A stretch of DNA of 32,000 bases from Listeria riparia FSL S10-1204 (GTDB taxonomy: Bacteria; Bacillota; Bacilli; Lactobacillales; Listeriaceae). Each line of letters opens with the position of its first letter. Position 1 is the first letter of the stretch. Below the pieces are notes generated by a model, which was not told the origin of the DNA, made no database searches, and was given only the letters and a program-made list of their open reading frames with translations. Positions 2,911 through 30,791 of this stretch are shown here, piece by piece. The translations under genes and the position numbers were made by a program. The DNA is taken from assembly GCF_000525995.1 (NCBI RefSeq), contig NZ_AODL01000007.1, positions 347,252 to 379,251 on the forward strand, given 5' to 3'.

Positions 2911-3876
2911 TTATCCAATTTTCCTTGATTCATCATTTCGGTAAACAACGCCATCTACTTGCGATTCTACAAAATAAAGCGGACGATTTTTTGTCTCCAT
3001 AAAGATGCGTCCAATGTATTCGCCTAATAAGCCGATGCTCACAAGTTGAATAGCGCCTATAAACAATACAACTGTAATAATACTCGTTGTACCACTCGGT
3101 GACTTACCAAGAAAAATGCTTTCAAAGAAAAAGAACAATAGCATTAGAAGACAGAGAACTATAATACTCGCACCAGCAATGGCAGACAAACGCAACGGTG
3201 CCACAGAAAATGATGTAATTCCATCAATAGCCAACTGTACCAATTTTCGATAATTCCATTTTGTTGCACCTGCAACGCGTGCATCTCGTTCAAATAAGAT
3301 TTCCTTCTTCTTAAAGCCAACGAAACAAAATAAACCTTTTGTATAGCGTTGTGATTCTCGCAATTCTTTCAATGCTTCAATACATTTTTTATCTAGTAAG
3401 CGAAAATCTCCTGTGTCTTTTGGGATATCAATGGTCGATATTTTTTGTAATACCTCATAATATTTTTTGGAGGACCATTTTTTAAACCAAGTTTCCCCCT
3501 TGCGCGAAATTCGTTTGGCGTAAACGTCTTCATAGCCATCTTCCCAATATTCCAACATTTGGACAATCAGCTCTGGTGGGTCTTGTAAATCTGCATCTAG
3601 CAAAATCGTGGCATCTCCACAAGCATGATCAAATCCTGCTATCATGGCTATTTCTTTCCCGTAATTCCGCGACAAATTAACAAATCCCACGCGCTGATCC
3701 TGCCTTTGAAAGCTATGAATGATGTCTAATGTTGCATCTGTACTACCATCGTTCACAAACAAGAATGAAAAGCGGTAAGTGGCTAACTGGCTCGCTATAC
3801 GCTTCAAACGCTCATAAAGATACGGCAACGCTTCTTGTTCATTATAAGTTGGTATCAAAATACAAATTTGTTTCAT
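2911..3876 (-). CDS. GT2 polyprenyl-phosphate glycosyltransferase (GtrB/CsbB-like).
   Basis: Family hallmarks are present: ILIPTYNEQEAL, FVNDGSTD, LDADLQDPPE and DTGDFRLL. The C-terminus has two TM helices followed by LGEYIGRIFMETKNRPLY. Length is 321 aa. Confidence 0.9.
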   Translation of the reverse strand: MKQICILIPTYNEQEALPYLYERLKRIASQLATYRFSFLFVNDGSTDATLDIIHSFQRQDQRVGFVNLSRNYGKEIAMIAGFDHACGDATILLDADLQDPPELIVQMLEYWEDGYEDVYAKRISRKGETWFKKWSSKKYYEVLQKISTIDIPKDTGDFRLLDKKCIEALKELRESQRYTKGLFCFVGFKKKEILFERDARVAGATKWNYRKLVQLAIDGITSFSVAPLRLSAIAGASIIVLCLLMLLFFFFESIFLGKSPSGTTSIITVVLFIGAIQLVSIGLLGEYIGRIFMETKNRPLYFVESQVDGVVYRNDESRKIG

Positions 3877-3890
3877 TTGACAAACTCCTT

Positions 3891-4451
3891 TTATGAATTA
3901 GATATCTTTTTCATTGCGTACTCATCTAATTTTTCCATATTTAAAATCATCCATGGTTTTGGCTTTACGCGAATAATGCCAGCCTCAATCATTTTTCGTA
4001 ATAATAAGGAGACGTATTCTCTTTTTAGGTTACAGTAATCTGCTAAATCATATTGTGTAAATGCAGGTGCTATTTGTATACCTTTTTCCACATGTGTGCC
4101 AAATTTGTTTGCTAATTGTTTTAAGCACAGGCAAAGTCTCATTGGTGCGCTCCACTTATATTCATCCAGCCGTTCTAACAACTGTCGATTATAAATTTTG
4201 ATGCACGATTCCATACTGATTTGGCTGATGCGCTGTTTCTCCAATTGGACTTCTGTTTTGGCGTAGAAAATAATACCCTCATTCACCAAATTTGTTAGGA
4301 TGAAATCACCTGCCGCTAAATAGCTAATGATGCTCCCCGAATTGCTTCTCATGACTACAATGCCACGTTTAATGATAAAAAAGTTATTACTACTATGAAA
4401 AGCCATATCTTGTTTTTCTGAAAATGTCATTTCCGACCAATCGTGGTACAT
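3891..4451 (-). CDS. Crp/Fnr (PrfA-like) family transcriptional regulator.
   Basis: An N-terminal beta-roll-like region is followed by a C-terminal HTH (YDLADYCNLKREYVSLLLRKMIEAGII). I chose the ATG at 4451 (MYHDW) because GGAGGAGGAAG lies just upstream. The track start at 4469 is a TTG inside that SD. Confidence 0.75.
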   Translation of the reverse strand: MYHDWSEMTFSEKQDMAFHSSNNFFIIKRGIVVMRSNSGSIISYLAAGDFILTNLVNEGIIFYAKTEVQLEKQRISQISMESCIKIYNRQLLERLDEYKWSAPMRLCLCLKQLANKFGTHVEKGIQIAPAFTQYDLADYCNLKREYVSLLLRKMIEAGIIRVKPKPWMILNMEKLDEYAMKKISNS

Positions 4452-4483
4452 CCCATCTTCCTCCTCCAACTATTCCAAGCAGT

Positions 4484-5562
4484 CTACTCTTTTGAAGCGA
4501 AAGACTGGATAATCTGATCTGTTGTATATTTTTCTTTGCTCACCAATTTTCGCACTGCTATTTTTTCATAAAATGCTGCTTCCGTTAATAATCGTGTTAG
4601 CCAGTCTATAATCTGTATCTTTGAAGAACCTATAAAAACGCTTGGGCCATGACTTCCACCCATAGCCTTTACTGAGGTTTCTTGAACGACCAAGACCGGT
4701 GTATGCAATGCTTCGGCAACTTCTAAGCAATCACTACTATCAGTGATAATTAGCCATGCTCGATTCACGAATTGTTGTTTTTCTAATATGTGAAAAGGTT
4801 GCACAAAATAAATCTGTTGTTGTCCTTTCAAAATCTCATTTGCTAGTTCCATAATGGTCGCTGTCAATTTTATCGGAATTACGACAATCACTTCTTTGTG
4901 GATGTCTGTAATTTGTTTAAGTCCTTGAAATATTTTTTTAAGCACTTTTTTTTTTGATCTGTTTTACCTTGGTAGTCTACTAAAATCATCTTTTTGTGCG
5001 CACTTTCTTCAGCAAGGAAAAGGGTGTCATGTCTAGTAACAATCGTTTGTAATGATTCTTCCAAGCCTAAAATCATTTCTTGTTTCGCTAATGACCCTAT
5101 TAAATCTTTACTTGTACTCCCCAAGAAAGCATTTTCGTCTTCTTGGTATATCGCTGGCCCCTTGACTTGGGTGACTGGAATACCATTGTAATAAGAGGAA
5201 AGCGTTGCTGCAAAAGCGATTCGTGTATTACCGCAAACAATTGTCGAAACTATTTTTTCACGCTTGACGATTTCAGTTAAGTCGTTCAATGCCCAACCAG
5301 TAAGCTGATCTAAGTTCTGATGCTCATCTGCGGTAATTGGTAATGTGTAATGGACCTTCACTTGAAATAATGCTAAAATGTCTTGCATCACTTGAGCCGT
5401 CTCCAGTTGCTCGGAGATAACAATGACTGGTATGACATTTTCTATACGTTCTAGTTTCTGAATCACGGGACATATTCGCATCGCTTCTGCAGGTGTATCA
5501 AATACCATCATTATTCTTTTCGTGTGGGAAACTCCATTTGTTTTCTTTAACATTTTTTTCAT
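4484..5562 (-). CDS. Degenerate UDP-N-acetylglucosamine 2-epimerase (WecB/MnaA)-like protein, split at a T10/A10 homopolymer.
   Basis: The two track ORFs (4888..5571 and 4484..4945) together span about 359 aa. Both are collinear with MnaA from memory: IMMVFDTPAEAMRICPV against VFGTRPEAIKMAPL, IVCGNT against VHGDT, and LIITDSSDCLEVAEALHTPVLVV against [22 protein letters not shown]. The frames switch inside the run 4946-4955, and one extra A on the coding strand would fuse them. The ATG at 5562 has GAAGGTG 7 nt upstream. Confidence 0.6.
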
Positions 5563-5579
5563 GATGGTCACCTTCTTTT

Positions 5580-6467
5580 TTAGTTACTTGATATTTGGCG
5601 ATCATTTAGTTTTTGCTCTGGGCGATTGTTGCCGTCTAATTGTTTTGTCAAATCGCTTAGTTGTTGTTTCGACATTGTGATTGGTTTTTCGTATACGAAC
5701 CATGACACGCCTTCTGTTGTTGCTGGTGTTGTCAATGAGCCATCATATTCATATATTTTGCTATCCGCTGTAATAAGTCCAAGTGTACTGATAGCTTGTT
5801 TCATTGCTACTGTTTTACCATTTTCAGAAGATGCAACGACACTCGTCAAATCACCTATTGCTTGATTTTTCTCGCCTTCTTTAACAAAAACGCTGATGAT
5901 TGCCACTTTGTTGTCTGCCGAAACGTGTTTTAGTTGTAATTCAGCTGCGTAATTTTTACCGTCTAGTTGGTGTTCGCTAGGTGTATGAATATTGATTTCT
6001 TTTAGTGTGTAGTCTTTTTTAGCGACTGTAATTTTACTGTCAGCTCTTCCTTTTGCTGGCTGAGCGACCACTTGTACCATCTTATCTTTACGTGTCACTT
6101 TAAACATTGTTGGTTGATATTTATAGCCAATGCTTACTTTTGCTTTGTCTTCTTTAGCATCTTTTGTTTCGATATTGATTGGTGATTGCTTTTTACCTGT
6201 GTCACTAATTTTGTATTCTGGTTTGATAGAACCCCAATGTGTCGGTCCTGTGCTACCTGAATAAGACCAGTCCAGTAAAGCTTTTTCGTCCGTTTTTGCA
6301 GTATCTTTTGTTGTATCCTTTGTTGTGTCTTTTGTTGTCTCCGTTGTTTTTGTATCTTCTTTCTTTTTGTCACTGCTAGCTGTGTCTGTGTTACCACAAG
6401 CTCCTAAAACTAATAAACTACTTGTTGCTACTGCTACTAGTGATACTGCCATACTTTTCTTTACCAT
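5580..6467 (-). CDS. Alpha-carbonic-anhydrase-like lipoprotein, predicted non-catalytic because zinc ligands are substituted.
   Basis: ATG at 6467 lies after GAGG. The lipobox is LLVLGAC, followed by a T/K/D-rich linker (KDTTKDTTKDTAK). The alpha-CA hallmarks are THWG, KKQSPINI, PSEH, YAAEL, GSLTTP, TEGVSW and NNRPEQKLNDR. However, FHFH reads INIH and ELHLVH reads ELQLKH. Confidence 0.8.
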   Translation of the reverse strand: MVKKSMAVSLVAVATSSLLVLGACGNTDTASSDKKKEDTKTTETTKDTTKDTTKDTAKTDEKALLDWSYSGSTGPTHWGSIKPEYKISDTGKKQSPINIETKDAKEDKAKVSIGYKYQPTMFKVTRKDKMVQVVAQPAKGRADSKITVAKKDYTLKEINIHTPSEHQLDGKNYAAELQLKHVSADNKVAIISVFVKEGEKNQAIGDLTSVVASSENGKTVAMKQAISTLGLITADSKIYEYDGSLTTPATTEGVSWFVYEKPITMSKQQLSDLTKQLDGNNRPEQKLNDRQISSN

Positions 6468-6490: not shown

Positions 6491-7779
6491 TTACTCGGCG
6501 ACACGTTCTGTTTTCGCCCAAGCTTCTTTTTTTGTTGTTTGTCTCCAAAATGCGAGCCAAATACTCGGAATCGCTAATAAATTATAGATTGGCATGAACA
6601 AACCTGCGCCAATACATTGTAAAAGGGAAATGCCATCCTGATCTTTACGACCTAGTTCATAGTGATAAATGCACCACACCAACCCTGGTCCAAAAATCAA
6701 ACCAACGATAACCAATAAGGCACCCCAGTCTTGCGGTGTATTTGAAAATCCTGCACCCCAATCGACTGATCGGAAAAAGATTAGCATCAAGGCCCATGAA
6801 ATAATCATGATGATACTACCTAACAAGTTAATCCATGGCTGCGCCAAAAAATAATAAATGTCCAGCTTTGAAGCGCTACTCAATGTATCGGATTTTCTTA
6901 TTTCTTGCAGTCGCTTAATAGACTGAATGTTGCCTTGTACCCATCGTGCTCGTTGGCGAATAAATTTTTTGACAGATGTTAGACCTTGTTGGTACACTAC
7001 TGCTTCACCAATATACTTACTTTTCCAACCTTTCAGTAAAATAGATAACCCAAGATCAAAATCTTCTAACAAACATTTCGACCATGGTGTACTGCCTAAT
7101 TCAATTAGTGCGCTTAGTCGTGTAAACTGTCCGTTTCCGCCCAAGCCTACACTTTCTGTATATTCGCGACTATTTTGGATGGCTGCAACGGTAGAATAAA
7201 ATTCAATATCTTGCATCATCGGCAAAATACTTCTGCGATTTGTAATGCGAATCCGTGCTTGTGCTGCACCAACAGCTGTATCTCGAAATATCCGATTTGC
7301 TTCTGTTAGCAAATTATCACTTGGACGTCCGTCGCCATCAATAACAGTAATAATAAGGTTATCCGGATTTCTATTTAAACGTCTTGCTGCTTTTGTTATT
7401 TTTGTATAGGCATAATTTAATGACTCACCTTTTCCTAATTGCGCATTTGGTTTTTTGCGTTCAATCACTCGAACATTAGGAAGTTTCATTTGACGAACAG
7501 TTGCCACTGTACTATCATCCGAATCATCGTCTATGACAATGACCATCTTCTTTTTATAAGATAAGGCTAAAATTGAACGAATTGTCTTTTCAATTACCAC
7601 TTCTTCATTCAAGCAAGGAATTAAAAATACATATTCTAATTCGCTATCGTCTTCTTCACTGATTTTTTTTCTTTTTTTCCTGCAAAAGGTGGGAGTAGTA
7701 AAATTAAGCTCGTATATGAAAAATAAATAAATATGAGAAACACGCTCACTCCTGCCATAATTGCTAATAAAGCATTCAT
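6491..7779 (-). CDS. Processive family-2 glycosyltransferase (polysaccharide-synthase type, QxxRW), with the frame broken in an A7-G-A8 tract.
   Basis: ATG at 7779 follows GGAGG and encodes an N-terminal TM helix (MNALLAIMAGVSVFLIFIYFSYTSLILLL). This frame stops after the poly-A tract (7663-7670 and 7672-7678 on the plus strand). The -1 frame continues ..KKISEEDDSELEYVFLIPCLNEEVV into the track ORF 6491..7612. Motifs present are VIDDDSDD, VIDGDG, LEDFDL (TED-like) and QRARW, plus C-terminal TM helices. The reconstructed protein is about 429 aa. Confidence 0.85.
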
Positions 7780-7811: not shown

Positions 7812-8427
7812 TTACTTTGTCACAGGTTGAAGTATTACAACTTCACGACTTTGATAGCCGTCTTGTGACCTATCAAATGAGCCTGTACATGAGATGAGCG
7901 TGACTTTATTTCCTTTTGTTGTGTCCATTAACTCTTGTGGAAAGTCTTTAACTGCGTAAGAATTTTTTGGATTTTACTTGAAATTCTTTTTTTGTATTAT
8001 CGGCATATCCAATCGTTACTTTTTCACCTACAGAAATATCCTCCAAGTATTTAAACAAACCTAGCTCACCACCCCAATCACGGTGTCCAGCAATGATTGC
8101 ATTGCCTTTATCCCCTGGTGATGGTCCATATTTATACCAATACACGGCATCAATTCCATCAGGTACTTCCATCCTTCCATCTTTGTCCGTACCTACTGGC
8201 CGAACTGGATTTTGGATTTGTGTTTTTGTTCCTTGACGAAATGTTATTTGCACTGGTGCTATACTTTTTTGTTTCGTTTTTGGCTGATTTTGAGGGATTG
8301 TTGCTATTTCTTTCGTTTGGTTGCCTTTTGGAAGCGTTTCTGAGTTAGCATTAACATAGTCAAAAGCGATAATAGCACTGACTAAAAGTAATAGAACACA
8401 TGCCGCCGCAATAATCCTTTTCCTCAT
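7812..8427 (-). CDS. Sortase-family transpeptidase (accessory; class not assignable by eye), with the frame broken at a T6/A6 run.
   Basis: There is an N-terminal TM anchor (RIIAAACVLLLLVSAIIAF) and the His motif IIAGHRD. The track ORF ends at 7948. Shifting frame at 7963-7968 gives ..SYAVKDFPQELMDTTKGNKVTLISCTGSFDRSQDGYQSREVVILQPVTK*. That tail contains the catalytic TLxxC cysteine and the conserved Arg. The stop is at 7812-7814. Confidence 0.85.
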
Positions 8428-8678
8428 TCGCCTTCCCGTCCTTTCACAGACTGATCTTTATAGAAAGCAACAAAAGCACCATGGTAAGGCAACATTCGAA
8501 TGTAACCTTCACCGCTTAATTTCGTAATCGCCGCACGAATTGGTGTGCGACTCATATTTAATTCATGCGCTAAATCTTGCTGACTAACGAAATCCCCCAT
8601 CTTAAATCGATTCTCTTTAATGCATTTCAAAACATGTGCATATGCGACTTCTTCCAGTCGTGGTCTTTTATCTTTCAT
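8424..8678 (-). CDS. GntR-type winged-HTH protein with the DNA-binding domain only (84 aa).
   Basis: The sequence VSQQDLAHELNMSRTPIRAAITKLSGEGYI matches the GntR N-terminal HTH pattern, and there is no effector domain. Its stop overlaps the sortase ATG (ATGA), which suggests translational coupling. Confidence 0.7.
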   Translation of the reverse strand: MKDKRPRLEEVAYAHVLKCIKENRFKMGDFVSQQDLAHELNMSRTPIRAAITKLSGEGYIRMLPYHGAFVAFYKDQSVKGREGE

Positions 8679-8711
8679 AACATTTATTCACTCCATAAAA
8701 TGAATTCCTTT

Positions 8712-10208
8712 TTATTGTCTTAGTCCGATATCATCTAAATTCATAGATGCTTCCGTCTTTTTCTTACCTTTTCTTGCAAAAAGCCGGTATGCTTGCCAAC
8801 ATCCCCACGCAGCAATGACTGAGTAGCCGATAATTAAAGGCACATGATATCTACCTTGTACTTCTACGAGAAGCCCTGACAAAGTAAATCCGACTTGTAG
8901 CAAGACGAATAAATAAATATCCGCTATCTTTCTTAAATAAAGTGCCAGTACGACAGTCAGGAAGTTAAGCCCTAACAAGATGTACATAAACACATTGCAA
9001 ATCGTTAAAATAAGACCTGAATGGTACCAAATGAATGGTGCATCACTGTAAATATTCCAGTCGTATCCGTAACTCTCGTTGCTATAATTTTTCATTTTAT
9101 TAACAAAATGCTCTCCTAATTTTCCATTCTTCGCCATTTCCTTGTAGCGATCTAAGCCTTGTTGCAACATAGCGCTGTCTGCTTTAGATGTATTTGTTTT
9201 GTTTGCATTGTAAAGTTTCCAAAATGTATCGGAATCTTCTTTGCTCCATTGCCCACCTGACTTTTCGTTTGATCCCACAAGTACGTTATAACCGACAGTA
9301 CTATTGGCAGTTGGAATGTGGTAAACCAATTTATTGATAGTCGATTGACCAGCAAGGAAAACAAGAAATAGTACTACTACAAAGGCATATCTTTTAAGTG
9401 TTTCTTTACGATTCGGTCGAAGTAAAAATGAAGTTATAACAAAAGCAATTAGCAAAACTACTGCCAATGGTCGAATCATATTTAATGCTATCAGCGCAAC
9501 TACTAGTAGTAATGACCAGAAAAAACTCGGTGCTCTTTGTTCCACTTGTTGGTATAAGAAAAGTGCCAAGACAAATAGGAACATGAATAGGGGCTCGGTC
9601 GCTAGTAACGTACTGTACATAAAGTATGCCGGCCATAATGCGAAAATAAGGCTACTGCCTACTGCGACTCCAAGTGGAAACCAGTTTTTCACGACTCGGA
9701 AAAGTAAAAATGTACCCGCTAGCATTAAGACACTATTGAATAACTGACCTGCCAAGTAACTATTTCCAAAGATATTGTAAACAACAGATAATACATTGGA
9801 AAAATTGAGAATGTGTGTAAAGTATGGTGCATAAAATAAAATTCCTTGATCGTACAACGTTTCCCAACTGTTGTTATCCGCGACATAGCTTGCAATAACA
9901 TGGTAGTAATAAAAATCGGAAACAGCATGTGTTGGTATCCAAACAATCCATACGATTCTTGGGATTAAAATCAATGCAGCTAGTGCTACGTAAAAATAAA
10001 CCTTTTTCCATTGATAGAGCCTAATAAAGGCCCAAGTGCATAAAGCCAAGATAAGCAAAATTCCGGCACCAATCGCCAAAAGCATCCAAATTGAGGAGAA
10101 ACTTTTGTCAGACGGTTGCTGTAGTAGAATTGCTGTACTGACTAGAAAAACAATCATAATAAGTGCTGGAATCCATAAGGCAATTCCCGTTAAGCTTTTT
10201 TTAAGCAC
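8712..10208 (-). CDS. Polytopic GT-C-fold glycosyltransferase (PMT_2/ArnT/GT39-like).
   Basis: This is a 498-aa protein with about 12 predicted TM segments. The first external loop carries an acidic motif (HAVSDFYYYH), and there is a large extracytoplasmic loop (TANSTVGYNVLVGSNEKSGGQWSKEDSD...). It starts at GTG after GGAGGAG. The family assignment is by overall pattern only. Confidence 0.65.
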   Translation of the reverse strand: MLKKSLTGIALWIPALIMIVFLVSTAILLQQPSDKSFSSIWMLLAIGAGILLILALCTWAFIRLYQWKKVYFYVALAALILIPRIVWIVWIPTHAVSDFYYYHVIASYVADNNSWETLYDQGILFYAPYFTHILNFSNVLSVVYNIFGNSYLAGQLFNSVLMLAGTFLLFRVVKNWFPLGVAVGSSLIFALWPAYFMYSTLLATEPLFMFLFVLALFLYQQVEQRAPSFFWSLLLVVALIALNMIRPLAVVLLIAFVITSFLLRPNRKETLKRYAFVVVLFLVFLAGQSTINKLVYHIPTANSTVGYNVLVGSNEKSGGQWSKEDSDTFWKLYNANKTNTSKADSAMLQQGLDRYKEMAKNGKLGEHFVNKMKNYSNESYGYDWNIYSDAPFIWYHSGLILTICNVFMYILLGLNFLTVVLALYLRKIADIYLFVLLQVGFTLSGLLVEVQGRYHVPLIIGYSVIAAWGCWQAYRLFARKGKKKTEASMNLDDIGLRQ

Positions 10209-10356: not shown

Positions 10357-13300
10357 TCAGTCGCTCCAAACATGTGTTGTTTGATATTGAAGTATATTTC
10401 CTGTTAAATCGTCAAGAAGTAAATATCTTACTCCTTCATACGTAGCATATACTTTTACCTGCATAGTTGGAGTTGTCCAGATACCAGAACTATCGCTCAC
10501 CATTTCTTGATGATATGTTCCATTTGAAGTACCAATGACTTTAGTAAACTGGAACGTACCGTATTGGTTATACGTATCTACAGAGTATACTACGCCTGCT
10601 GGTACATCAGCTACATGTGGATAAAGATAGAAATCAATTCCACGTACTCCGCTTCCACTATCAGGGTATGCACCGTCCCTACGATCATTTACAAGCTCAA
10701 TATCAACACTTCCTACACGATCAGCGATACTCTTATTAACAGTGACATTGATTGTTTTCGTGATGTTTGATCCGTCTGTTGTTTTCACTGCAATTGTTGT
10801 TGTTCCTGATTTTTTCGCTGTCCAGTTTCCGTTAGCATCTACTGTAATGATGCTTGGGTCTGCTGGTGTGTAGCTCAATGTTTTGTTTGTTGCATTGGAT
10901 GGTGCTACTGTTGCATCGATTTTACCTGTGTCATTTACGTTTGCTGTGATGTTTGATGCTCCTAGTGTAAGATCCGTTGCTAGAACGTCTGTTGCTGTAA
11001 CTGTAAATGTGAATGAACGTACAACATTTCCTGCTGCGTCACGGATTGTTACATTCGTGCTACCAGCTTTGTCGTTATGCACAAGTGCAATTAGGTTTGG
11101 ATCTGATTGGTCTGCTGCTGCAATTGTTGTGTCTGAGAAGGAAACTGTATATCCTTTTGGTTGAACCAATGTGCCAGCACTGTTGTAGAATTGAAGATCT
11201 ACATGTGGTTTGTTAAATTCATTCAAGTATGTGTTTGGAATTTCAAGGATGCCGTTGTTATTGACTGGACGTGAAACGCCATCTTTATTGAAGTTCCATT
11301 TTACACTAGTGATAGCATTCGGATCTGTAACAGTAACATTGACAGTTTTCGTGATGTTAGAGCCATCTGTTGTTTTCACTGCAATTGTTGTTGTTCCTGC
11401 TTTTTTCGCTGTCCAGTTTCCGTTAGCGTCTACTGTAATGATGCTTGAATCTGCTGGTGTGTAGCTCAATGTTTTGTTTGTCGCATTCGATGGTGAGACA
11501 GTTGCATCGATTTTACCTGTATCATTGACGTTTGCTGTAATGTTAGATGCTCCTAGCGTAAGATCAGTTGCTGGAACGTTTGTCGGTGCTGTAACTGTGA
11601 ACGTGAATGAACGTACAACATTTCCTGCTGCATCACGGATTGTTACATTCGTGCTACCAGCTTTCTCATTGTGAACAAGTGCAATTAGATTTGGGTTAGA
11701 GAAGTCTGCTGCTGCAATTGTTGGATCTGAGAATGATACTGTGTATCCTGTTGGTTTTACAAGTACGTTTGAACTATTGTAGAACTGAAGATCTACATGT
11801 GGTGTGTTAAATTCATTCAAGTATGTGTTTGGAATTTCAAGGATGCCGTTGTTATTAACTGGACGTGAAATGCCATCTTTGTTGTAATTCCATTTAACAT
11901 CTGTTACTGCTGTTGGATCAGCGGTAATTGTGATTGTAAATGTGCGTACTACTTTGCCTGATGCGTCTTTTACAGTTACTAATGAGCTTCCTGTTTTCTC
12001 TGTATGTGTAAATGCGATGTGTGTTCCATTAGCTTTTACAGCAGAGAATAGGTCTGGATTAGATAGCGTTGTTGTATACGAGCTAGGGTCTACAATTTTA
12101 TCTTCGCTATTGTAGAATGCAACGTCTACGTTGTTATTGTTGTAGCCATCTTTGTATGTGTTCGGTACAGAAATCTCGCCACCTTCAGCTAGATTAGTAT
12201 CTGGTGTAAAGCCTGTGTGATAAATCCATTTTGCATTAGCTACTGCTGTTGGATCAGCTTGTGCTACAAGTGATGCGTTCATATCTGTACGTGTTTGTTC
12301 TGCATCGATATTGATGTACCCAGATACGCCATCATCACCGAATGCTGCATTCGCTAAGTTGTCATATCCTGCTGGTGGTGTTACTTTCACATAGTAAGTT
12401 CCTGGTGTGATTGTTTCGAATTTGTACAAGCCGTTAGCATCTGTTGTAGTTGTTTCGACAACAGCACCTGTGTTGCTGTAAAGTGTTACTGTTGCTCCAG
12501 CAATACCAGATTCGCCTGCTTCTTGCGTACCGTTTTTGTTCAAGTCATTGAAGACTGTAGAACGGATTTGGCCTGTTTTTTGTGCTAGTGTTAGACGTAG
12601 ATTTGAGATATTGCTTGTGCCGTCAGCTTGCAAGTAGTAACTGTTTCCGTCGCTACCAAAACCTGCTGAAGATTCGAATGTGTAGCCTTCTGGAATGGAA
12701 GCTTTCACATAGTAGTTACCTTCTGAAATTCCGTCAAAGCTGAAGTTACCTTGGCTGTTTGTTGCAACAGTTTTCACAAGTGTACCGTCTACGTTGTAAA
12801 GTGATACGTTTTCGCTGACACCTTGACCACCTGGTGTGTTAATAACGCCAGAAATCGTTGTGTTGGCTTGTTTTTTCAGTGCAATCATGTAGTTAGATGA
12901 TGTGTTTTGACCATCAAGTTGGATGTAGTTACTGTTACCGTCACTACCGAAACCATTACTGCTTGCAAATTCATAGTTGTTTGGAATAACTACTTTTGTA
13001 TAGTAATTTCCTGCTGCTAATCCTGTGAAGTTGTAGTTACCGCTTGCGTCTGTTTGTTTTGCGTCAACTAGGTTTCCTTGTACGTCATGTAGTTCGACAC
13101 GGATGTTTGCAAGTCCGTTACCTGTTGTTGCGTCTTTTACTGTTCCGCTAACTGCAGAGTTGTCTTTTACTTGTTTTTTCAGTGCAATCGTGTAGTTAGA
13201 TGATGTGTTATCGCCGTTTAATTGGATGTAGTTACTGTTTCCATCACTACCAAAACCATTACTGCTTACAAAGTCATAGTCGCTTGGAATCACTACTTTT

Positions 13301-14262
13301 GTATAGTAGTCTCCTGCTGCTAGTCCTGTAAAGTTGTAGCGACCACTTGCATCTGTTTGCTGTGCGTCAATTAAATTGCCTTGTACGTCATGTAGTTCGA
13401 CACGTGTGTTCGCAAGTCCGTTGCCTGTTGCTGCATCTGTTACAGTTCCGCTAACTGCAGAGTTGTTTAGTGTGCTTAGGCCTAAATTCAACTCGTTATG
13501 AAGCGTTTGTTCGCTAGCTACAGAGAAGTAACCTGTTGTTCCATCAGCGCCATAGTATGTGCTTGATTGGTATTTGTAGTTGGCAGGGATGTCTGCTTTT
13601 GCGTAGTATTTACCAGGTTTTACAGCCGTGAAGCTATATGCGCCTGAGCTGTCAGTTGTTGCGTCGGCTACTTTAGTTCCTGATTCGTTGTATAAAGCAA
13701 TATGAACGCCGCTGATTCCAGCTTCTCCGCTGTCTTTTTGACCATTTTTATTAGTATCGTTATATACAAAGCTTTGAATCGCGCCTTGTTGTGGATAGAA
13801 ACCGAAATGGAAGCCTGTGATTGTATTGCCATTCGCAATCGTGAAGTAGCTTGAGTTACCGTCTGCACCGTTGATACCTTGTGATGTATAAAGTTTCTCA
13901 TCGGATGGCAATGTTGACATATCTACATGTAAATAGTATGTGCCGTCTGGAACGTTTGAAAAAGTATATCTGCCGTCTGTTCCTGTTGTAGATGTGCTTA
14001 CTAGTGTTCCTTGGTCGTTGTAAAGCTCTACTTTAATGCCGGCTACACCTGTTGTTTCGTTGTTATCTTGTACGGAATTTCCGTTTAAATCTTCAAACAT
14101 AACATCGCTAATAGTACCTTGACCAGATGCTTTTAATTGTTTGATTGTGTTTTCTGCTGCAGATACAGTCATGTAGGGTTGGATAATTGGTGTTAGGCTT
14201 CCTAATACCAATACGCCTGTGATAGCGCCAAGTCCCCATTTCTTCATTGTCTTCTTATACAT
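10357..14262 (-). CDS. 1301-aa secreted adhesin with SdrD-B/Cna-B-like repeats and Big_2 domains; no recognisable cell-wall anchor.
   Basis: ATG at 14262 follows AGGAGGAA, and the signal peptide is MYKKTMKKWGLGAITGVLVLGSL...VSAAEN. About 7 modules follow the pattern V(F/Y)xDxNxNGxQDxxExGxxGVxVxLYNxxG...TDxxGxYxFxxVxPGxYY. Two tandem copies of a roughly 197-aa unit each end in a Big_2-like segment (ATDLTLGASNITANVNDTGKIDATV.PSNATNKTLSYTPAD.SIITVDANGNWTAKK). The C-terminus ...QYQTTHVWSD has no LPXTG, hydrophobic tail, or GW, LysM or WxL pattern. Confidence 0.9.
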   Translation of the reverse strand: MYKKTMKKWGLGAITGVLVLGSLTPIIQPYMTVSAAENTIKQLKASGQGTISDVMFEDLNGNSVQDNNETTGVAGIKVELYNDQGTLVSTSTTGTDGRYTFSNVPDGTYYLHVDMSTLPSDEKLYTSQGINGADGNSSYFTIANGNTITGFHFGFYPQQGAIQSFVYNDTNKNGQKDSGEAGISGVHIALYNESGTKVADATTDSSGAYSFTAVKPGKYYAKADIPANYKYQSSTYYGADGTTGYFSVASEQTLHNELNLGLSTLNNSAVSGTVTDAATGNGLANTRVELHDVQGNLIDAQQTDASGRYNFTGLAAGDYYTKVVIPSDYDFVSSNGFGSDGNSNYIQLNGDNTSSNYTIALKKQVKDNSAVSGTVKDATTGNGLANIRVELHDVQGNLVDAKQTDASGNYNFTGLAAGNYYTKVVIPNNYEFASSNGFGSDGNSNYIQLDGQNTSSNYMIALKKQANTTISGVINTPGGQGVSENVSLYNVDGTLVKTVATNSQGNFSFDGISEGNYYVKASIPEGYTFESSAGFGSDGNSYYLQADGTSNISNLRLTLAQKTGQIRSTVFNDLNKNGTQEAGESGIAGATVTLYSNTGAVVETTTTDANGLYKFETITPGTYYVKVTPPAGYDNLANAAFGDDGVSGYINIDAEQTRTDMNASLVAQADPTAVANAKWIYHTGFTPDTNLAEGGEISVPNTYKDGYNNNNVDVAFYNSEDKIVDPSSYTTTLSNPDLFSAVKANGTHIAFTHTEKTGSSLVTVKDASGKVVRTFTITITADPTAVTDVKWNYNKDGISRPVNNNGILEIPNTYLNEFNTPHVDLQFYNSSNVLVKPTGYTVSFSDPTIAAADFSNPNLIALVHNEKAGSTNVTIRDAAGNVVRSFTFTVTAPTNVPATDLTLGASNITANVNDTGKIDATVSPSNATNKTLSYTPADSSIITVDANGNWTAKKAGTTTIAVKTTDGSNITKTVNVTVTDPNAITSVKWNFNKDGVSRPVNNNGILEIPNTYLNEFNKPHVDLQFYNSAGTLVQPKGYTVSFSDTTIAAADQSDPNLIALVHNDKAGSTNVTIRDAAGNVVRSFTFTVTATDVLATDLTLGASNITANVNDTGKIDATVAPSNATNKTLSYTPADPSIITVDANGNWTAKKSGTTTIAVKTTDGSNITKTINVTVNKSIADRVGSVDIELVNDRRDGAYPDSGSGVRGIDFYLYPHVADVPAGVVYSVDTYNQYGTFQFTKVIGTSNGTYHQEMVSDSSGIWTTPTMQVKVYATYEGVRYLLLDDLTGNILQYQTTHVWSD
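10745..11926 (-). repeat. Two tandem 591-bp (197-codon) near-identical coding repeats inside the adhesin gene.
   Basis: The string gttttcactgcaattgttgttgttcctg occurs at 10781 and 11372, a 591-bp offset. The protein copies differ at only a few positions. A more diverged half-copy follows at about 11927-12260. Confidence 0.9.
12846..13451 (-). repeat. Two tandem 303-bp (101-codon) coding repeats inside the adhesin gene.
   Basis: The string ccgctaactgcagagttg occurs at 13145 and 13448. The peptide copies are AVSGTV.DA.TGNGLAN.RVELHDVQGNL.DA.QTDASG.YNFTGLAAG.YYTKVVIP.... Confidence 0.9.
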
Positions 14263-14319: not shown

Positions 14320-14502
14320 TTAGGATACTTGATTGTGTTGCTTCCGTTTATTCTTCGCAAATAAAAGAACGGCTGTTACTGCTGCTATTCCAATGCCTAT
14401 GGTTGCTGCCATGAGCGGATACCCTTGGAGCATTGCCGCACCAATAATAGGACCACCTCCAGTCATTGGGACCAATGGATTTAAATTACCACCTTGACTC
14501 AT
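14320..14502 (-). CDS. 60-aa Gly-rich membrane mini-protein resembling a stand-alone cell-wall sorting signal.
   Basis: ATG at 14502 follows AAGGAGG. The sequence is MSQGGNLNPLVPMTGGGPIIGAAMLQGYPLMAATIGIGIAAVTAVLLFAKNKRKQHNQVS. It consists of a VPMTG motif, a hydrophobic segment and a basic tail. It lies 57 nt upstream of the adhesin start with no intervening terminator. Confidence 0.6.
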   Translation of the reverse strand: MSQGGNLNPLVPMTGGGPIIGAAMLQGYPLMAATIGIGIAAVTAVLLFAKNKRKQHNQVS

Positions 14503-14639: not shown

Positions 14640-15318
14640 TTAGTATGGTATGCTTATGTCAGCTTTATTTAGAATGAATTGGTTTGTGTCTGCTTCGAAA
14701 ATCCCGTTGTTTTCGAAATCTTTGCAGAGGTATGTCATGTGTTGTCTTGTCATGCCTAGATAATTCGAAATTATCTTTTTTGTAAAAATTTTCGGTAATA
14801 TTATTTGATATTGATTTTCTTCACCGTATTGTTGTCCTAGATGTGTGAGGGTGAGGAGAAGTTGTTTTTTTTGTTTCTTCGGTTTGGAGAAGTTGTTTTT
14901 GTAGGAGATTAGCGTTGACTAGTTTCATATATTGGTAGAGGTAGAACGCGCCTTCTTGAGAATACATTAGCTTGCTCATGACTTCTTCTTTGGAAAAGCG
15001 CCAAGTCACAATGTCGGTTAGAGCGATGACACTTGTAAATGATGGTTCGTTTCCTAGTATTTCGTTGAAACCAATAATGTCGTTTTCGCCGATGAAGCTA
15101 TTAATATGCTCATTTTTCCATACGCCACAAATACCAGATTGGATGAAATAGATGTAATCGTGTATTTCGTTTTCAATCACTATATAATCTTTTTTTCGGA
15201 ACACTTTTCTTTCTTTATCTATAGGAAAAGATGTTTTGTCTGATAAAACGTTTAGTAATTCTGTGCTGCTAAATTCTTCTTCCATAACATCCTTATCGAA
15301 TAATTCCATGTAGCTCAT
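14640..15318 (-). CDS. Crp/Fnr (PrfA-like) family transcriptional regulator, with the frame broken at a T8/A8 run.
   Basis: The track ORF 14821..15318 carries the cNMP-binding-like beta-roll (YFIQSGICGVWKNE...). Removing one A from the run at 14865-14872 extends it. The extension reads ..EETKKQLLLTLTHLGQQYGEENQYQIILPKIFTKKIISNYLGMTRQHMTYLCKDFENNGIFEAD...SIPY*, with the stop at 14640-14642. This is a typical Crp-family HTH, and the total is about 225 aa. Confidence 0.8.
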
Positions 15319-16212: not shown

Positions 16213-17334
16213 TCAATGAAACGGACAACCGCCACGTTTTACGGGAACAATGTCTTCCCGGTGAAAAGGCGCTTCTTGATAGAAAAAATTAGGTTTGATA
16301 ATTTTATTTGGATAGCGTTGATGGAAAATGTGTGTCGTGGCTGGTGAAACTGGTGGGATGAGCCATGCCCATTCTCCGGTGACTTCACGTCCTGCTTTTT
16401 GCTCGTTTGTTTCGAATTGGCCAAATTGACGGGCCGCGGTGTGATGGTCTACGATTTGGACTTTAGCTTTGTGATAGGAATCGAGGACGGCGACGTTTAG
16501 TTCGACTAATGCGCGATCCTTCCATAGAGAGTCGAGCCTCTTCGTGTTGAGACCGATTTTTTCTGCGACGGCGGTGAGTTGGTTGTAACGTCCTTCGTCA
16601 GCAAAATTGCGGGCGCCGATTTCGGTTTCCATATACCAGCCGTTGAATGGTGCGGCTTGATAGGTTAGCCCACCGATTTCGAGCTTCATTTCGGAAATGA
16701 TGGGCACGGCGTACCAGCGCAAACCAAGTTCGGCGATTCCTGGATAGTCTGGATGCGCGATGGGGACTTCTAGTACAAGCTTGGGTGGGATTTCGGTGTA
16801 TGTCGGAGATGACTCGTGACTTTCCTGAAAAACGAATGGCAAAATATCAAACGGTGTCCGGGCGCCACGCCAGCCAAGTTGTTCGCAGATTTTGGTGAAT
16901 GCGACGGAGGCTGGGTCACCAATCACGCCTTGTTCTGTCTCGTAACCTGCGTACCGTATTAATTGGTGATTCCAAATACGAGGTCCGTCCTCACCCGGTT
17001 TAAAAATCGTGATGTATGGCCGTATTTGCCCGCCATTCGTTGCTTTTTCGATATGGGTGAACAATGCGGATTGGATTTCATGCGCCGTCACAGCATCGCG
17101 GGCATCAACGACTTGAATCCGATCCCAAAAAAGCCTACCAACACAGCGATTACTGTTTCGCCACGCCATTTTTGCCCCGATGGTTAGTTCTTCTAACGTA
17201 TGCGTGTATGTACCAGTTTGCGTGATTTCTTCGTGTATCTCATCGATTCTGCTTTTGATTTCCGAGTTACTTCTGGAAAGCTCGTTATAAGCTTGCGTAA
17301 TAAATTGTTCTGCTTCTTGCATATTTACTTTCAT
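16213..17334 (-). CDS. nos: Bacterial nitric-oxide synthase, oxygenase domain.
   Basis: The heme-thiolate motif [13 protein letters not shown] is present, along with strong collinear NOSoxy signatures ([42 protein letters not shown]). I chose the ATG at 17334 ([11 protein letters not shown], 373 aa) with an upstream GGAAAGGAAG. The longer track ORF (to 17469) would run through the upstream terminator. Confidence 0.92.
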
Positions 17335-17378
17335 CGCTCTGCTTCCTTTCCGTTCGGTATTTCCTTTATTGTACCACG

Positions 17379-17411
17379 AAAAAACAAGAGAAGTTCTCTT
17401 TGCTTCCCTTG
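17379..17411 (-). terminator. Rho-independent terminator downstream of the lipoprotein gene.
   Basis: The minus transcript reads CAAGGGAAG-caaagagaa-CTTCTCTTG, a 9-bp stem with one G-U pair, followed by TTTTTT. Confidence 0.6.
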
Positions 17412-17425
17412 TTTTAAAATTAGAA

Positions 17426-18035
17426 TTAGTGCGATACACGCAATTGTCCGAGACGCTTAATTTCAGCAATAATCGCGTTTCTTTCTGATTGTGTTAAGTT
17501 AGGATTATTCAGTTTTTTCTTCTCAGTAGCAATTAGACGACCTTTTTCTTCTCCCGTAATCGTGCCAGATTCTTTGTTTTGGCTGAGATTGTACGGTCTG
17601 CTTTTGTTCCGATTGTTTTGGGGCTGGTGTTGTCGTTTCTGCTTTCGGTGTTTGTTTTGGGGCTGTGCTTGTTGTCTCTTGTTTCGCTGGTGTCTTGGTC
17701 TTTGGTGTTTCTGTTTCCGCACTGGCTGTAGTTTGTTCCTGACTACTTTCTTCTTTGGCCTCAGCTTTTGCCTTGGTTTCCGCTTCTGCCCTCACTTTAT
17801 TTTCCGACTCTACTTTCGCCTTTGCGTCTGCTTCAGCTTTGTGCAATGCGGCCAAATTCGCGTTAGCATCTTTCAATTCGGTGTTTTCTTCTTTGATTTT
17901 ATTGACTTCTTTACTCAGCGCCTCAATCTTTTCTTCGGCTTTCTTCAAGTCTGCATTGTCCTTCTCTGCGGTGTTATCGCCACATCCAGCAAGTGCAAAC
18001 GATGCTAAAAGCGCAATTCCTAGTAGTTTCTTCAT
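17426..18035 (-). CDS. Coiled-coil/low-complexity lipoprotein, with the two halves in different frames.
   Basis: ATG is at 18035 and the lipobox is [18 protein letters not shown]. An E/K/A-rich coiled-coil and a P/T/K/Q-rich region follow. Frame A stops at 17523. The overlapping frame B continues ..[50 protein letters not shown] to 17426, right before a terminator. Dropping one A at 17577-17580 would join them. The exact indel site is not determinable, because 200 nt are open in both frames. Confidence 0.7.
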
Positions 18036-26609: not shown

Positions 26610-27324
26610 ATGACGAAATACGAAGAAATCTCTAAAGATATTCGGGACAAAATTCATTCCGGCATCTATCCTCCAGAATCATTACTGCCAGACCAGTTAA
26701 CCCTTTGCAAAACATACGATTGCAGCCGCATGACGATAAAAAAAGCATTTGATATTTTGGCGATGGAAGGCTTGGTTTACAGACAACGTGGTGCAGGAAC
26801 TTTTGTAATGAAAAATGCCTTAGCGAACAAGCAGGACGCGAGCTTGCGCGACTACGAAGGCTTGACCAAAATGATGGGAAAAAAACATATTTCAAGCCAA
26901 GTTATCGAATTTACGATTGGCTTCCCTAATGCAAAAGTACAGGAACAACTGCTAATAAAAAAAAGACGAGCCAGTATATTCTATTGTGCGGTTGCGACTT
27001 CTTGATAAGAAACCTTATGTTTTGGAGCACACGTTCATGCCGCTAAATGTTGTCACTGGTTTGAATGAAACGATTTTGCACGGTTCGATTTATGATTATT
27101 TAAAACAAGAGCTTGGACTAATTATGAGCGGTGCCTTCCGAAAAATTAATGCGGACAAGCCGTCTGACTACGACAAACTGTATTTGAATTGCGGTGAACA
27201 CGACCCGGTTCTTGAGGTGGAGCAAGTTGTGTATTCAAAAGATGGACGCCCGATTGAATATTCTCGTTCGCGACACCGTTATGATACGCGAAGTTTTATT
27301 ATGTTAGATCATCGTGAACCGTGA
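26610..27324 (+). CDS. GntR/HutC-family transcriptional regulator (wHTH plus UTRA domain), with the frame broken at an A8 run.
   Basis: The N-terminus is MTKYEEISKDIRDKIHSGIYPPESLLPDQLTLCKTYDCSRMTIKKAFDILAMEGLVYRQRGAGTFV. With A7 instead of A8 at 26957-26964 the frame reads ..LIKKDEPVYSIVRLRLLDKKPYVLEHTFMP.., joining track ORFs 26610..27005 and 26986..27324 into 237 aa. Confidence 0.85.
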
Positions 27325-29508: not shown

Positions 29509-29509
29509 G

Positions 29510-29771
29510 ATGGATAAAAATGTAAAAAAAAATATACGACTTAATGTATAGTCCAATATTAACCCCATATAATTTATTGGAAAATATAAGATTGGACAAT
29601 TATGAATATGTAAATTACAGAAAAGAAAAGGAATTAGTGGTTTGTGAGATGAAAGTAAAAGTAGGTAAAGACACAGTTATTTTTGCATATTACTTTAATG
29701 AGGATAACCACTTGCAATTTGCTGACGCGAGTAATTTAAATGATGATAGCGTTATGGTTATTTTTGATTAG
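29510..29771 (+). CDS. Hypothetical 86-aa protein translationally coupled to the helicase, with the frame broken at an A9 run.
   Basis: ATG at 29510 lies 1 nt after the helicase stop, and GAAGGAGAGGA is upstream. With A8 instead of A9 at 29524-29532 it reads MDKNVKKIYDLMYSPILTPYN.., continuing into track ORF 29544..29771. No motif is recognised. Confidence 0.55.
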
Positions 29772-29896
29772 AGAGAGAAGTATTACAGATGCTGTTAATG
29801 AATTTGATAGCAATATGATTCGTTGCTTTTCGGTTGTATAAATTTTTTTAACCAATCAGCGGGGCGGGGGGCGAAACCCTCACAACCCATCATAGA

Positions 29897-29930
29897 GCCT
29901 CAACAGATTTCGTGTCTGTTGGGGCTTTTA
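29897..29930 (+). terminator. Rho-independent terminator of the helicase operon.
   Basis: GCCTCAACAGA (29897-29907) pairs with TCTGTTGGGGC (29915-29925), an 11-bp stem with one G-U pair and a 7-nt loop, followed by TTTT. Confidence 0.75.
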
Positions 29931-30068
29931 AATTTACCGGATAAATGACTTCATATCCGAACATCCACTCACCTAAAGGGATATTTTTCATTTTAATCAA
30001 ATACAAAAAATTTATGGGAATTGTAAAGAGAGCTTCTGTGTTTTACATATTGAAAAATACCTTTATTG

Positions 30069-30203
30069 TTAGGATTGCTGGCTAATCATGCCACTATTCT
30101 TATTATATTCAATAATGCCTGAAATTTTTTCATCAGGACCGTATTTATAAACGACTTTTTCCTCATTTTCGTACTCTTTTGTCATGATAATGAAAACAGC
30201 CAT
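30069..30203 (-). CDS. 44-aa ORF, possibly a truncated remnant of an immunity-type protein.
   Basis: It is not in the ORF track because it is under 60 aa. ATG at 30203 follows AGGAG at 6-nt spacing, directly after the stop of the 112-aa gene. The sequence is MAVFIIMTKEYENEEKVVYKYGPDEKISGIIEYNKNSGMISQQS*. Confidence 0.35.
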   Translation of the reverse strand: MAVFIIMTKEYENEEKVVYKYGPDEKISGIIEYNKNSGMISQQS

Positions 30204-30218
30204 TGTGTCACTCCTAAT

Positions 30219-30557: not shown

Positions 30558-30567
30558 ATTAGTTTCC

Positions 30568-30693
30568 TCACTTCAAATGATTTGTGATGTGTTGCCTTTC
30601 GACCAGATAGTTTTCGAATAGTTGATTCGCAATATCTTTTCTCCCTATACTATCTGCCCAATGTATTTCTTGCATATACACATCGAATTCCAT
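30568..30693 (-). CDS. 41-aa ORF.
   Basis: It is not in the ORF track. ATG at 30693 follows GAGG at 6-nt spacing. The sequence is MEFDVYMQEIHWADSIGRKDIANQLFENYLVERQHITNHLK*. Its stop overlaps the SD of the next gene. Confidence 0.35.
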   Translation of the reverse strand: MEFDVYMQEIHWADSIGRKDIANQLFENYLVERQHITNHLK

Positions 30694-30791
30694 TTTAAGC
30701 CTCGCTTTTGGTTATCTTTTTTAATTCGTCAATAATCATTGTGAATGCCACTACCATAAATAAAATAAATAGAATATAAATTGCTTTTCAT

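Follow-up and report, generated by a model that had tools for sequence, protein, structure and literature searches.

We analyzed a 32,000-nt stretch of the Listeria riparia FSL S10-1204 genome (hereafter the window) and, within it, the minus-strand product of positions 5580 to 6467, a lipoprotein that has the fold of an α-carbonic anhydrase (α-CA) but in which two of the three zinc-binding histidines of those enzymes are replaced. We refer to it as the pseudo-CA; homologous proteins and fetched loci are given P and L numbers, respectively. The open reading frame (ORF) is intact and comprises 295 codons plus a stop, running from an ATG at 6467 to a stop at 5580-5582, and the ribosome-binding site (RBS) GTGAGG lies 9 to 10 nt 5′ of the ATG. 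A longer, TTG-started version of the ORF, reaching up to 6560, was rejected; it is unneeded and would overlap the end of the upstream family 2 glycosyltransferase (GT2) gene. Besides the ORF and its RBS, the assignment draws on Pfam family PF00194, an AlphaFold2 (AF2) model, and Foldseek searches.

The product begins with a lipoprotein signal peptide (6396 to 6467; read from the sequence and from the clade alignment) of sequence MVKKSMAVSLVAVATSSLLVLGA-C24, whose lipobox, L-G-A-C, ends in Cys24 and satisfies the pattern [LVI][ASTVI][GAS]C. Leu21 and Cys24 are invariant across the clade alignment, and every member has a lipobox, including the sister-group proteins P0162 and P0163 (the sister-group lipoboxes being LFSC and SIAC). 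The signal peptide is followed by a disordered linker of about 40 residues (residues 25 to 63; 6279 to 6395) that is rich in Thr, Lys, and Asp (Ser plus Thr fraction, 0.36), has a predicted local distance difference test (pLDDT) score below 50, and varies in length among paralogs. Within it, Tandem Repeats Finder identified four copies of a 12-nt unit at 6301 to 6348. Copy number varies by allele, the window protein having extra (T/K)KDTT units compared with P0002 and P0003, and the length of the tether is therefore polymorphic. The linker of the Carnobacterium pseudo-CA is short and not Thr rich.

The remainder of the protein (residues 64 to 295; 5583 to 6278) is an α-CA-fold domain, as seen in profile, pairwise, and structural comparisons. 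Residues 74 to 294 match PF00194 with an E value of 1.6e-35 and a score of 123 bits (cutoff, 27), covering profile positions 2 to 252 of 254. The best solved relatives by sequence are the bacterial α-CAs 6EKI, 4XZ5, 4G7A, and 4C3T (E values of about 1e-39). In the AF2 model, residues 82 to 295 or thereabouts are globular, with pLDDT values of about 90 or higher, and Foldseek matched the model to bacterial α-CAs with template modeling scores of 0.80 to 0.85 and a probability of 1.0; dioscorin and the human isozymes came next. The pseudo-CA domain thus has the α-CA fold. An earlier note on this DNA, which drew on the sequence alone, had named the scaffold motifs THWG, QSPINI, SEH, YAAEL, GSLTTP, TEGVSW, and NNRP.Q.LN.R (here NNRPEQKLNDR), the altered ligand segments EINIHTPS and AELQLKH, the lipobox (LVLGAC), and a repetitive linker, all of which we find in place. 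A tblastn search revealed no further CA-like copies in the window.

Remodeling of the active site

Residues were mapped onto human CA II by HMMER pairwise alignment, a 28-sequence MAFFT alignment (the window protein and 27 homologues), a phmmer-based census, and a further alignment with human CA II as its anchor, all of which agreed. In the HMMER pairwise alignment, "lkeinihtpseh" falls on "lkqfhfhapseh" and "aelqlkh" falls on "feahfvh." Hence, of the zinc ligands, His94 has become Asn159 (codon 5991-5993) and His119 has become Gln178 (codon 5934-5936), while His96 is kept as His161. Both ligand strands have changed beyond the ligands themselves. In the first, E157-I-N159-I-H161 (5985 to 5999), the second-shell residue Gln92 is replaced by Glu157; in the second, E176-L-Q178-L-K180 (5928 to 5942), Glu117 is kept and Val121 of the CO2 pocket has become Lys180. 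In the former proton-shuttle segment, K127-D-K129 (6081 to 6089), Asn62 and the shuttle residue His64 are replaced by Lys127 and Lys129. The disulfide formed by Cys23 and Cys203 is likewise lost, with Ser88 and Thr250 at these positions.

Other parts of the site are retained. In human CA II numbering, Tyr7, His96, Glu106, His107, Glu117, Leu198, Thr199, Thr200, Val207, and Trp209 are all present, and all but Leu198, Thr200, and Val207 of these are fold determining. The gatekeeper pair Thr199-Glu106 is represented by the invariant Thr246 and Glu165. At the CO2-pocket positions Val121, Val143, Leu198, and Trp209, the protein has Lys180, Ile190, Leu245, and Trp256, so that three of the four are kept or conservatively replaced and only Val121, now Lys, is not.

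When the degenerate clade described below was compared with 12 true bacterial CAs, seven positions were found to differ: N62K/Q/I, H64K/Q, Q92E/T/A, H94N/S, H119Q, V121K (mostly), and V143I/M. All 12 true CAs are canonical at the changed catalytic and cavity positions, except for Tyr in place of His64 in two and Thr in place of Asn62 in three. Within the clade, Asn159 and Gln178 stay carboxamides throughout Listeria and Carnobacterium; elsewhere Ser or Gln occupies the first ligand position, and P0163 has Glu at the third. Neither Lys180 nor Glu157 is invariant.

The pseudo-CA belongs to the α-CA fold family but, judged by its residues, fails the defining features of the enzyme. Where a catalytic α-CA has three zinc-binding histidines, the triad reads Asn159/His161/Gln178, and where it has the proton shuttle and the Asn62/Gln92 network, the residues are Lys129, Lys127, and Glu157. 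With two of three ligands replaced, it has the sequence hallmark of a CA-related protein (CARP), an α-CA homologue lacking at least one zinc histidine. The earlier note had reached the same two ligand substitutions by manual alignment, together with the loss of the shuttle and of the Cys after LTTPP; every alignment bears these out, and none placed histidines at all three ligand columns. Its list of altered residues was nevertheless incomplete, missing Gln92 and Val121. The lack of two zinc histidines, although real, is also not unique to this protein, as discussed next.

The clade and its genomic neighborhood

Rates of substitution were estimated by the Nei-Gojobori method on the CA domain, for eight homologous DNA sequences taken from the window and fetched loci (28 pairs). 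The ratio of nonsynonymous to synonymous rates (dN/dS) lay between 0.05 and 0.32 in all 28 pairs, including unsaturated pairs such as L002-L007 (dS of 0.16, ratio of 0.05) and L005-L006 (dS of 0.77, ratio of 0.10), and the pseudo-CA is therefore not a decaying gene. Every one of the closest database relatives carries the annotation Listeria booriae. These roughly 40 entries are 56% to 95% identical to the window protein and without exception have the Asn/His/Gln triad; the next tier, at about 35% identity, consists of ordinary His-His-His CAs of Bacillaceae. Through an exhaustive search of representative sequences and cluster look-ups, we found more distant members: a Carnobacterium divergens homologue (Asn-His-Gln; 42% identity), P0043 and P0290 (both Ser-His-Gln), P0162 (Gln-His-Gln), and P0163 (Gln-His-Glu).

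In a neighbor-joining tree, the Listeria, Carnobacterium, and P0043 sequences are monophyletic (bootstrap value, 89) and share two derived characters, an inserted G(R/K) and the motif K..STL(G/A)L. P0162 and P0163 form their sister group, and the whole is nested among His-His-His CAs of Bacillota. The degenerate sequences are thus one clade of single origin, and since that clade nests within the Bacillota α-CAs, it arose independently of the animal CARPs VIII, X, and XI. With a profile built from the divergent members, only clade sequences scored above 360 bits, single-domain CAs reached at most 272 bits, and two tandem two-domain His-His-His CAs scored 340 to 349 bits. Because scores fall off this sharply outside the clade, the family is small. 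Three non-Listeria hits from a scan of genome contigs (two from Synergistales and one from Bacteroidales) were rejected as members; on translation they are ordinary His-His-His CAs that merely lack the disulfide.

X-His-Gln triads recur widely outside the clade, both in long proteins with multiple CA domains and in a small number of single-domain proteins from bacteria, so the pattern is a recurrent solution within the α-CA superfamily and not specific to this clade. As a separate observation, the long proteins (P0121 to P0128, P0146, P0153, P0161, P0172, and others), which account for many of the best hits among representative sequences, are 1,000 to 3,000 residues in length and have 3 to 15 tandem α-CA domains, most of them with X-His-Gln or X-Arg-Gln triads; their source may be eukaryotic. 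The change of His119 to Gln in particular is strikingly recurrent in α-CA homologues. Among the single-domain proteins, P0288 from Alkalicoccobacillus (Ala-His-Gln) was rejected as a member of the gene module described below; it falls outside the clade, and beside its gene lie genes for cation efflux, of the cation diffusion facilitator (CDF) type, and for an ArsR regulator. Bacterial X-His-Gln proteins, therefore, do not all belong to the module. In Alkalicoccobacillus plakortidis (L019), the gene for the single-domain Ala-His-Gln homologue (8001 to 8834) is divergent from the ArsR-type regulator and CDF genes, and its product may be a separate degenerate CA tied to metal homeostasis.

In the window, the pseudo-CA gene lies in a minus-strand cassette that we describe in order of transcription. 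The first gene (14320 to 14502; RBS, AAGGAGG) encodes a conserved 60-residue mini-protein that is a nearly bare sorting signal, consisting of LVPMTGGG, a transmembrane segment, and KNKRK. It is followed by the gene for a 1,301-residue secreted protein with SdrD_B, CarboxypepD_reg, and Big_2 repeats identified with Pfam (10357 to 14262), whose C terminus, on inspection, shows no LPXTG anchor; a membrane glycosyltransferase of the GT-C fold (PMT_2; 8712 to 10208), conserved in the Listeria and Carnobacterium cassettes; a small GntR-type helix-turn-helix protein (8424 to 8678); a dedicated, class-F-like sortase (7815 to 8427; about 204 residues when intact); and a processive-type GT2 synthase (6491 to 7779; about 430 residues when intact). 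Downstream of the pseudo-CA gene are genes for a WecB-like UDP-GlcNAc 2-epimerase homologue (4484 to 5571), a Crp-family regulator (3891 to 4469), a PgfS/GtrB-like GT2 of the undecaprenyl-phosphate sugar synthase type (2911 to 3876; NCBIfam PgfS model, 283.7 bits, below the cutoff of 500), a 96-residue ORF (2608 to 2898), and the N-terminal part of a second surface protein (827 to 2416), intact orthologues of which, in L005 and L006, end in LPTTG, a transmembrane segment, and RRKK. The pseudo-CA start codon lies 24 nt past the GT2 stop codon (16 to 32 nt in most cassettes), and the epimerase gene begins 9 nt past the pseudo-CA stop codon.

With its C-terminal transmembrane segments, a QRARW motif, and a match to the PgaC/IcaA model, the upstream GT2 is predicted to be a synthase of the processive, membrane-embedded type. 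It also scored 293 to 318 bits against the "XrtP-associated glycosyltransferase" model, the full-length match (318 bits) being below the cutoff of 520. The sortase is nearest to class F, at 100 bits, again below the cutoff. The SdrD_B giants of the window, L003, L005, L007, L008, and L013 have a signal peptide and neither LPXTG nor any other recognizable anchor, and those of the window, L005, L006, and L008 have in common a C-terminal domain containing ...YATYQGV.YL.... The mini-ORFs encode 55 to 62 residues: about 10 at the N terminus, followed by (L/V)(L/V)P(M/L/F/A/V)TG, GYP, a transmembrane helix, and a tail of Lys and Arg. Each is a sorting signal with almost no passenger, has a strong RBS, and as a rule adjoins the anchorless SdrD_B gene. 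Neither the mini-protein nor the 96-residue ORF has an NCBIfam or Pfam match. Apart from the window copy, mini-ORFs were located in L005 (2061 to 2243 and 18375 to 18551), L003 (5183 to 5374), L007 (1651 to 1902), L008 (5703 to 5879), L013 (10846 to 11013), L001 (5615 to 5794), L017 (5076 to 5273), L018 (4156 to 4413), and L020 (4216 to 4386).

Every pseudo-CA examined lies in one conserved gene module. We compared nine locus types that contain a pseudo-CA: the window with L005 and L006; L002 with L007; L003 with L004; L008; C. divergens L012 to L014; L001; L017; L018; and L020 with L021. The mini-LPXTG ORF is present in all nine, the SdrD_B-repeat gene in eight (none was called in L017), the ca. 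430-residue GT2 in eight, and the sortase in seven. The GT2 gene is immediately upstream of the pseudo-CA gene in seven types and nearby in an eighth. The earlier note had linked the protein to the GT2 synthase, and this linkage holds, although the synthase is neither the sole nor the most constant partner; the most constant companions are the mini-LPXTG ORF and the anchorless SdrD_B giant, joined by the dedicated sortase. Gene order varies: PMT_2, sortase, GT2, pseudo-CA, mini-ORF, and SdrD_B in C. divergens, which has a single cassette; mini-ORF, sortase, GT2, pseudo-CA, and SdrD_B in L020 and L021; and mini-ORF, GT2, pseudo-CA, and SdrD_B in L001. In L018, SdrD_B and the mini-ORF are divergent from sortase, GT2, and pseudo-CA, and in L017 the module genes are scattered over 6 kb. 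The Listeria cassettes additionally hold the PgfS-like GT2, the GT-C enzyme, and the epimerase.

The L. booriae type strain has at least four cassettes (L005, L006, L007, and L008), with varying tails, and another L. booriae strain has two (L002 and L003) on a single contig, JAARWV010000001.1. L005 and L008 are in tandem on NZ_JNFA01000011.1, at about 320 to 353 kb, L008 being directly downstream of the complete L005. L008 retains the mini-ORF, SdrD_B, GntR, and pseudo-CA genes and lacks its own sortase, GT2, and GT-C genes, a pattern suggesting that cassettes are able to share the enzymes, with the pseudo-CA remaining beside the cargo to which it belongs. By comparison, the gene for the closest His-His-His relative, P0041, lies in an unrelated context, between a tRNA-editing gene and ligD/ku. 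Since both P0041 and the Alkalicoccobacillus protein sit in other contexts, loss of the zinc site coincides with recruitment into the module.

Three neighbors of the pseudo-CA gene are frameshifted in the window, each in poly(A) runs: the sortase gene in an A6 run near 7962, the GT2 gene in an A7 run and the run following it (A7/A9) just below 7680, and the wecB-like gene in an A10 run near 4955. The pseudo-CA gene is untouched, and the orthologous neighbors are intact in L005 and L006. A GntR/UTRA regulator gene outside the cassette (26610 to 27324) is likewise split. Given the poly(A) location, the intact orthologues, and the split in an unrelated regulator, the frameshifts are most likely homopolymer sequencing errors, although they may instead reflect phase variation by strand slippage, or this cassette copy may have been inactivated. 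The second surface protein gene is also split, at 827 and leftwards.

Other features of the window were noted in passing. Crp-like or cNMP-binding (cyclic nucleoside monophosphate-binding) regulators flank the Listeria and Carnobacterium cassettes (window, 14821 to 15318, minus strand; L013, 5791 to 6447 and 17557 to 18222); that of the window, at 165 residues, has the cNMP-binding half only. Just past the cassette is a gene for the oxygenase domain of a bacterial nitric oxide synthase (16213 to 17469, minus strand; Pfam NO_synthase, E value of 2.5e-165), in a stretch of higher G+C content (0.48). Farther along, a ResIII/helicase-type gene (27619 to 29508, plus strand) is followed by ORFs without a family match, and positions 28000 to 31000 have a low G+C content (0.32 to 0.35) and a strongly positive GC skew; this stretch may be a foreign or defense-related insert. 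Rfam and tRNA scans of the window gave no matches, and a scan of it for promoters and terminators gave hits at chance level only.

Possible function

With moderate confidence, we favor the interpretation that the pseudo-CA is a membrane-tethered, noncatalytic subunit with a binding or scaffolding role in a conserved module for surface assembly and, as such, a bacterial analogue of the animal CARPs. What we observed is the fold, the substitutions, the action of purifying selection, one origin for the clade, and a conserved gene neighborhood; that CA activity has been lost, that the protein works by binding, and which partner it binds we infer from these. The earlier note had likewise proposed a nonenzymatic scaffold; the fold, the degenerate site, and the GT2 linkage agree with that proposal, while inactivity and the scaffold role are, as they were then, a matter of interpretation. 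The module would consist of the LPXTG mini-protein, the dedicated sortase, the processive GT2, the pseudo-CA, and the anchorless SdrD_B-repeat giant, and a CA scaffold without its CO2-hydration machinery would have been recruited to it as a noncatalytic subunit, lipid tethered at the outer face of the membrane on a flexible, Thr-rich linker of about 40 residues. By analogy with the animal proteins discussed below, binding would presumably occur through the remodeled former active-site funnel, now polar and charged (Glu157, Asn159, Gln178, Lys180, and Lys127/129). One candidate ligand is the glycan extruded by the cotranslated GT2 synthase; another, favored by the gene content of L008, is part of either the mini-protein or the cognate SdrD_B protein. 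In either case, the bound partner may be held or guided near the membrane while the sortase and glycosyltransferases act. The genes for BcsB, IcaB, and PgaB occupy a similar position beside other processive synthases. It is also plausible that the Thr-rich linker in Listeria is a substrate of the Pgf-like O-glycosylation enzymes of the cassette, but given that the linker in Carnobacterium is short and not Thr rich, this would not be a family-wide feature.

Several observations weigh against this interpretation. The invariance of Thr199, Glu106, His96, and most cavity-wall residues extends to the remotest members, which would also be in keeping with retained or new catalysis. The carboxamides of Asn and Gln are able to ligate zinc. 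The Plasmodium η-CA is active with His-His-Gln (PMC5437132). In L017, GT2 is on the opposite strand, and the lack of a GT2 gene in L008 speaks against an obligate partnership with the synthase. Finally, if the frameshifts in the window are real, this copy of the cassette may be inactive.

The alternative that fares best, although we think it unlikely, is that the funnel has been rebuilt into a new enzyme for the product of the module, for example a deacetylase or esterase whose substrate is the glycan made by the GT2; next to poly-N-acetylglucosamine synthases, the corresponding genomic position is taken by IcaB and PgaB. The cavity residues Asn159, His161, Glu165, Gln178, and Thr246, and for the most part Lys180 and Glu157, some kept and some newly acquired, are strongly conserved under purifying selection, and the gene is immediately downstream of a PgaC/IcaA-like synthase. 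α-CAs, moreover, have promiscuous esterase activity. However, the promiscuous activities known for α-CAs need a zinc-hydroxide, and the pseudo-CA probably has none; Lys180 and Glu157 do vary within the clade, L008 has no adjacent synthase, and there is no precedent for such an enzyme.

It is less probable still that the protein is a working CA with an unusual Asn/His/Gln metal site, supplying bicarbonate, protons, or pH buffering to the neighboring enzymes at the membrane surface. The conservation of His96, Glu106, Glu117, Thr199, Thr200, Leu198, and Trp209 and the persistence of carboxamides at Asn159 and Gln178 in Listeria and Carnobacterium would suit such a site, as would the active η-CA noted above. 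Human CA II still binds zinc and has some activity when H94N or H119Q is introduced singly, and Lesburg and colleagues reportedly found in 1997 that zinc binding by such variants is weakened but not lost; the structures 1H4N and 1H9Q are among the sequence matches of the window protein. In the pseudo-CA, however, both ligands are altered together, and with them the proton shuttle (His64 and Asn62), the second-shell Gln92, and Val121 of the CO2 pocket (to Lys), while elsewhere in the clade the first ligand is Ser or Gln and the third, in P0163, is Glu. Ordinary His-His-His relatives are absent from the module, as judged by the nearest, P0041, and a Toxoplasma gondii protein with a Phe-His-Gln triad, TgCA_RP, has no measurable activity (PMC5437132). 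A decaying CA relic in a degenerating locus, as the three frameshifted neighbors might suggest, can be dismissed: the ORF is intact, the dN/dS values effectively refute decay, identical substitutions are fixed in the roughly 40 L. booriae entries and in Carnobacterium, and the neighbors are intact in L005, L006, and other loci. The position of all three frameshifts in poly(A) runs, together with the split of the unrelated GntR/UTRA gene, points to sequencing error.

Returning to the noncatalytic binding subunit, a more elaborate and distinctly speculative version, which we consider unlikely, is that the five conserved genes make up an undescribed sortase pathway in which the mini-protein serves as a dedicated adaptor and the pseudo-CA as an extracytoplasmic receptor. 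The sortase would cut the mini-protein after LVPMT and transfer its N-terminal peptide of about 14 residues or, alternatively, the GGG-terminated membrane stub would be used. The pseudo-CA would present the glycan or protein to the sortase, and either the GT2-made glycan or the SdrD_B protein would thereby be coupled to the envelope.

Comparison with known systems and implications

Acatalytic relatives of α-CA are best known from animals. CARPs VIII, X, and XI and the CA-like domains of receptor-type protein tyrosine phosphatases (RPTPs) β/ζ and γ likewise have the α-CA fold with at least one zinc histidine replaced, are under selection, and serve as protein-binding modules (PMC5437132; PMC2873310). 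Unlike these, the pseudo-CA is of independent bacterial origin, is a lipoprotein, and belongs to a sortase/glycosyltransferase module. The closest likeness is to TgCA_RP, which combines an X-His-Gln triad with a lipid anchor, there a glycosylphosphatidylinositol (GPI) anchor and here a lipobox; TgCA_RP has a proposed binding role (PMC5437132). It differs in being eukaryotic, related to the η class, and involved in rhoptry biogenesis, and in having Phe rather than Asn as the first ligand. The Plasmodium η-class CA shares Gln as the third ligand but keeps the first two histidines and is active (PMC5437132).

Bacterial α-CAs (Thiomicrospira 4XZ5, Sulfurihydrogenibium 4G7A, Neisseria 1KOP, and those of Bacillaceae) are 30% to 39% identical to the pseudo-CA, have the same fold, and also occur in secreted and lipoprotein forms. 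Intact in them, however, are His-His-His, His64, Gln92, Val121, and the disulfide between Cys23 and Cys203, all of which are changed in the pseudo-CA, and their genomic context is unrelated. Dioscorin of yam tubers (PDB 4TWL) is a nonanimal protein with the α-CA fold and among the best sequence and structure matches of the pseudo-CA. It, too, has a His-to-Gln ligand change, but as a soluble storage protein of plants it has neither a lipid anchor nor a gene module.

As for the cassette, its nearest counterpart is the Pgf operon of Streptococcus mutans, in which PgfS, PgfE, PgfM1/M2, and adhesins are encoded together and whose products O-glycosylate adhesins and the disordered, Ser/Thr-rich stretches of membrane-associated proteins, the lipoprotein PrsA among them (PMC12041528). 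The Listeria cassettes resemble it in gene content, with a GT2 similar to PgfS, an epimerase, a GT-C enzyme, and adhesins encoded in one cluster. The Pgf operon, however, has no CA-like protein, processive GT2, dedicated sortase, or mini-LPXTG protein; its GT-C enzymes are of the YfhO type, whereas that of the window is PMT_2, and its epimerase, unlike that of the window, is not WecB-like. The earlier note knew of no described bacterial equivalent of the pseudo-CA, and neither did we find one: searches of the open literature for bacterial CARPs, for CA-like proteins of Listeria or Carnobacterium, and for a cluster combining sortase and CA returned nothing relevant, and a 2017 review of bacterial CAs mentions no bacterial CARP. 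The idea of a pseudo-CA is established, then, but a bacterial clade with a fixed sortase/GT2/SdrD_B context is, as far as we have found, undescribed.

Dead CAs have already been recognized as binding modules in animals, poxviruses, and Toxoplasma, and the clade described here adds an independent, convergent case from bacteria, one in which the X-His-Gln triad has appeared again. At a practical level, databases name these proteins "carbonic anhydrase," so they risk being miscounted as CO2-hydrating enzymes or as targets of CA inhibitors. The sortase pathway outlined above, if it exists, would make the pseudo-CA the first bacterial CARP with a defined partner, and the likeness of the GT2 to XrtP-associated glycosyltransferases would then point to an old partnership of protein-sorting transpeptidases with this GT2 family. 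More generally, the clade offers a genetically tractable means of asking what the CA funnel binds once its zinc has gone, and a handle on an uncharacterized module of surface assembly, amplified in L. booriae to no fewer than four or five copies.

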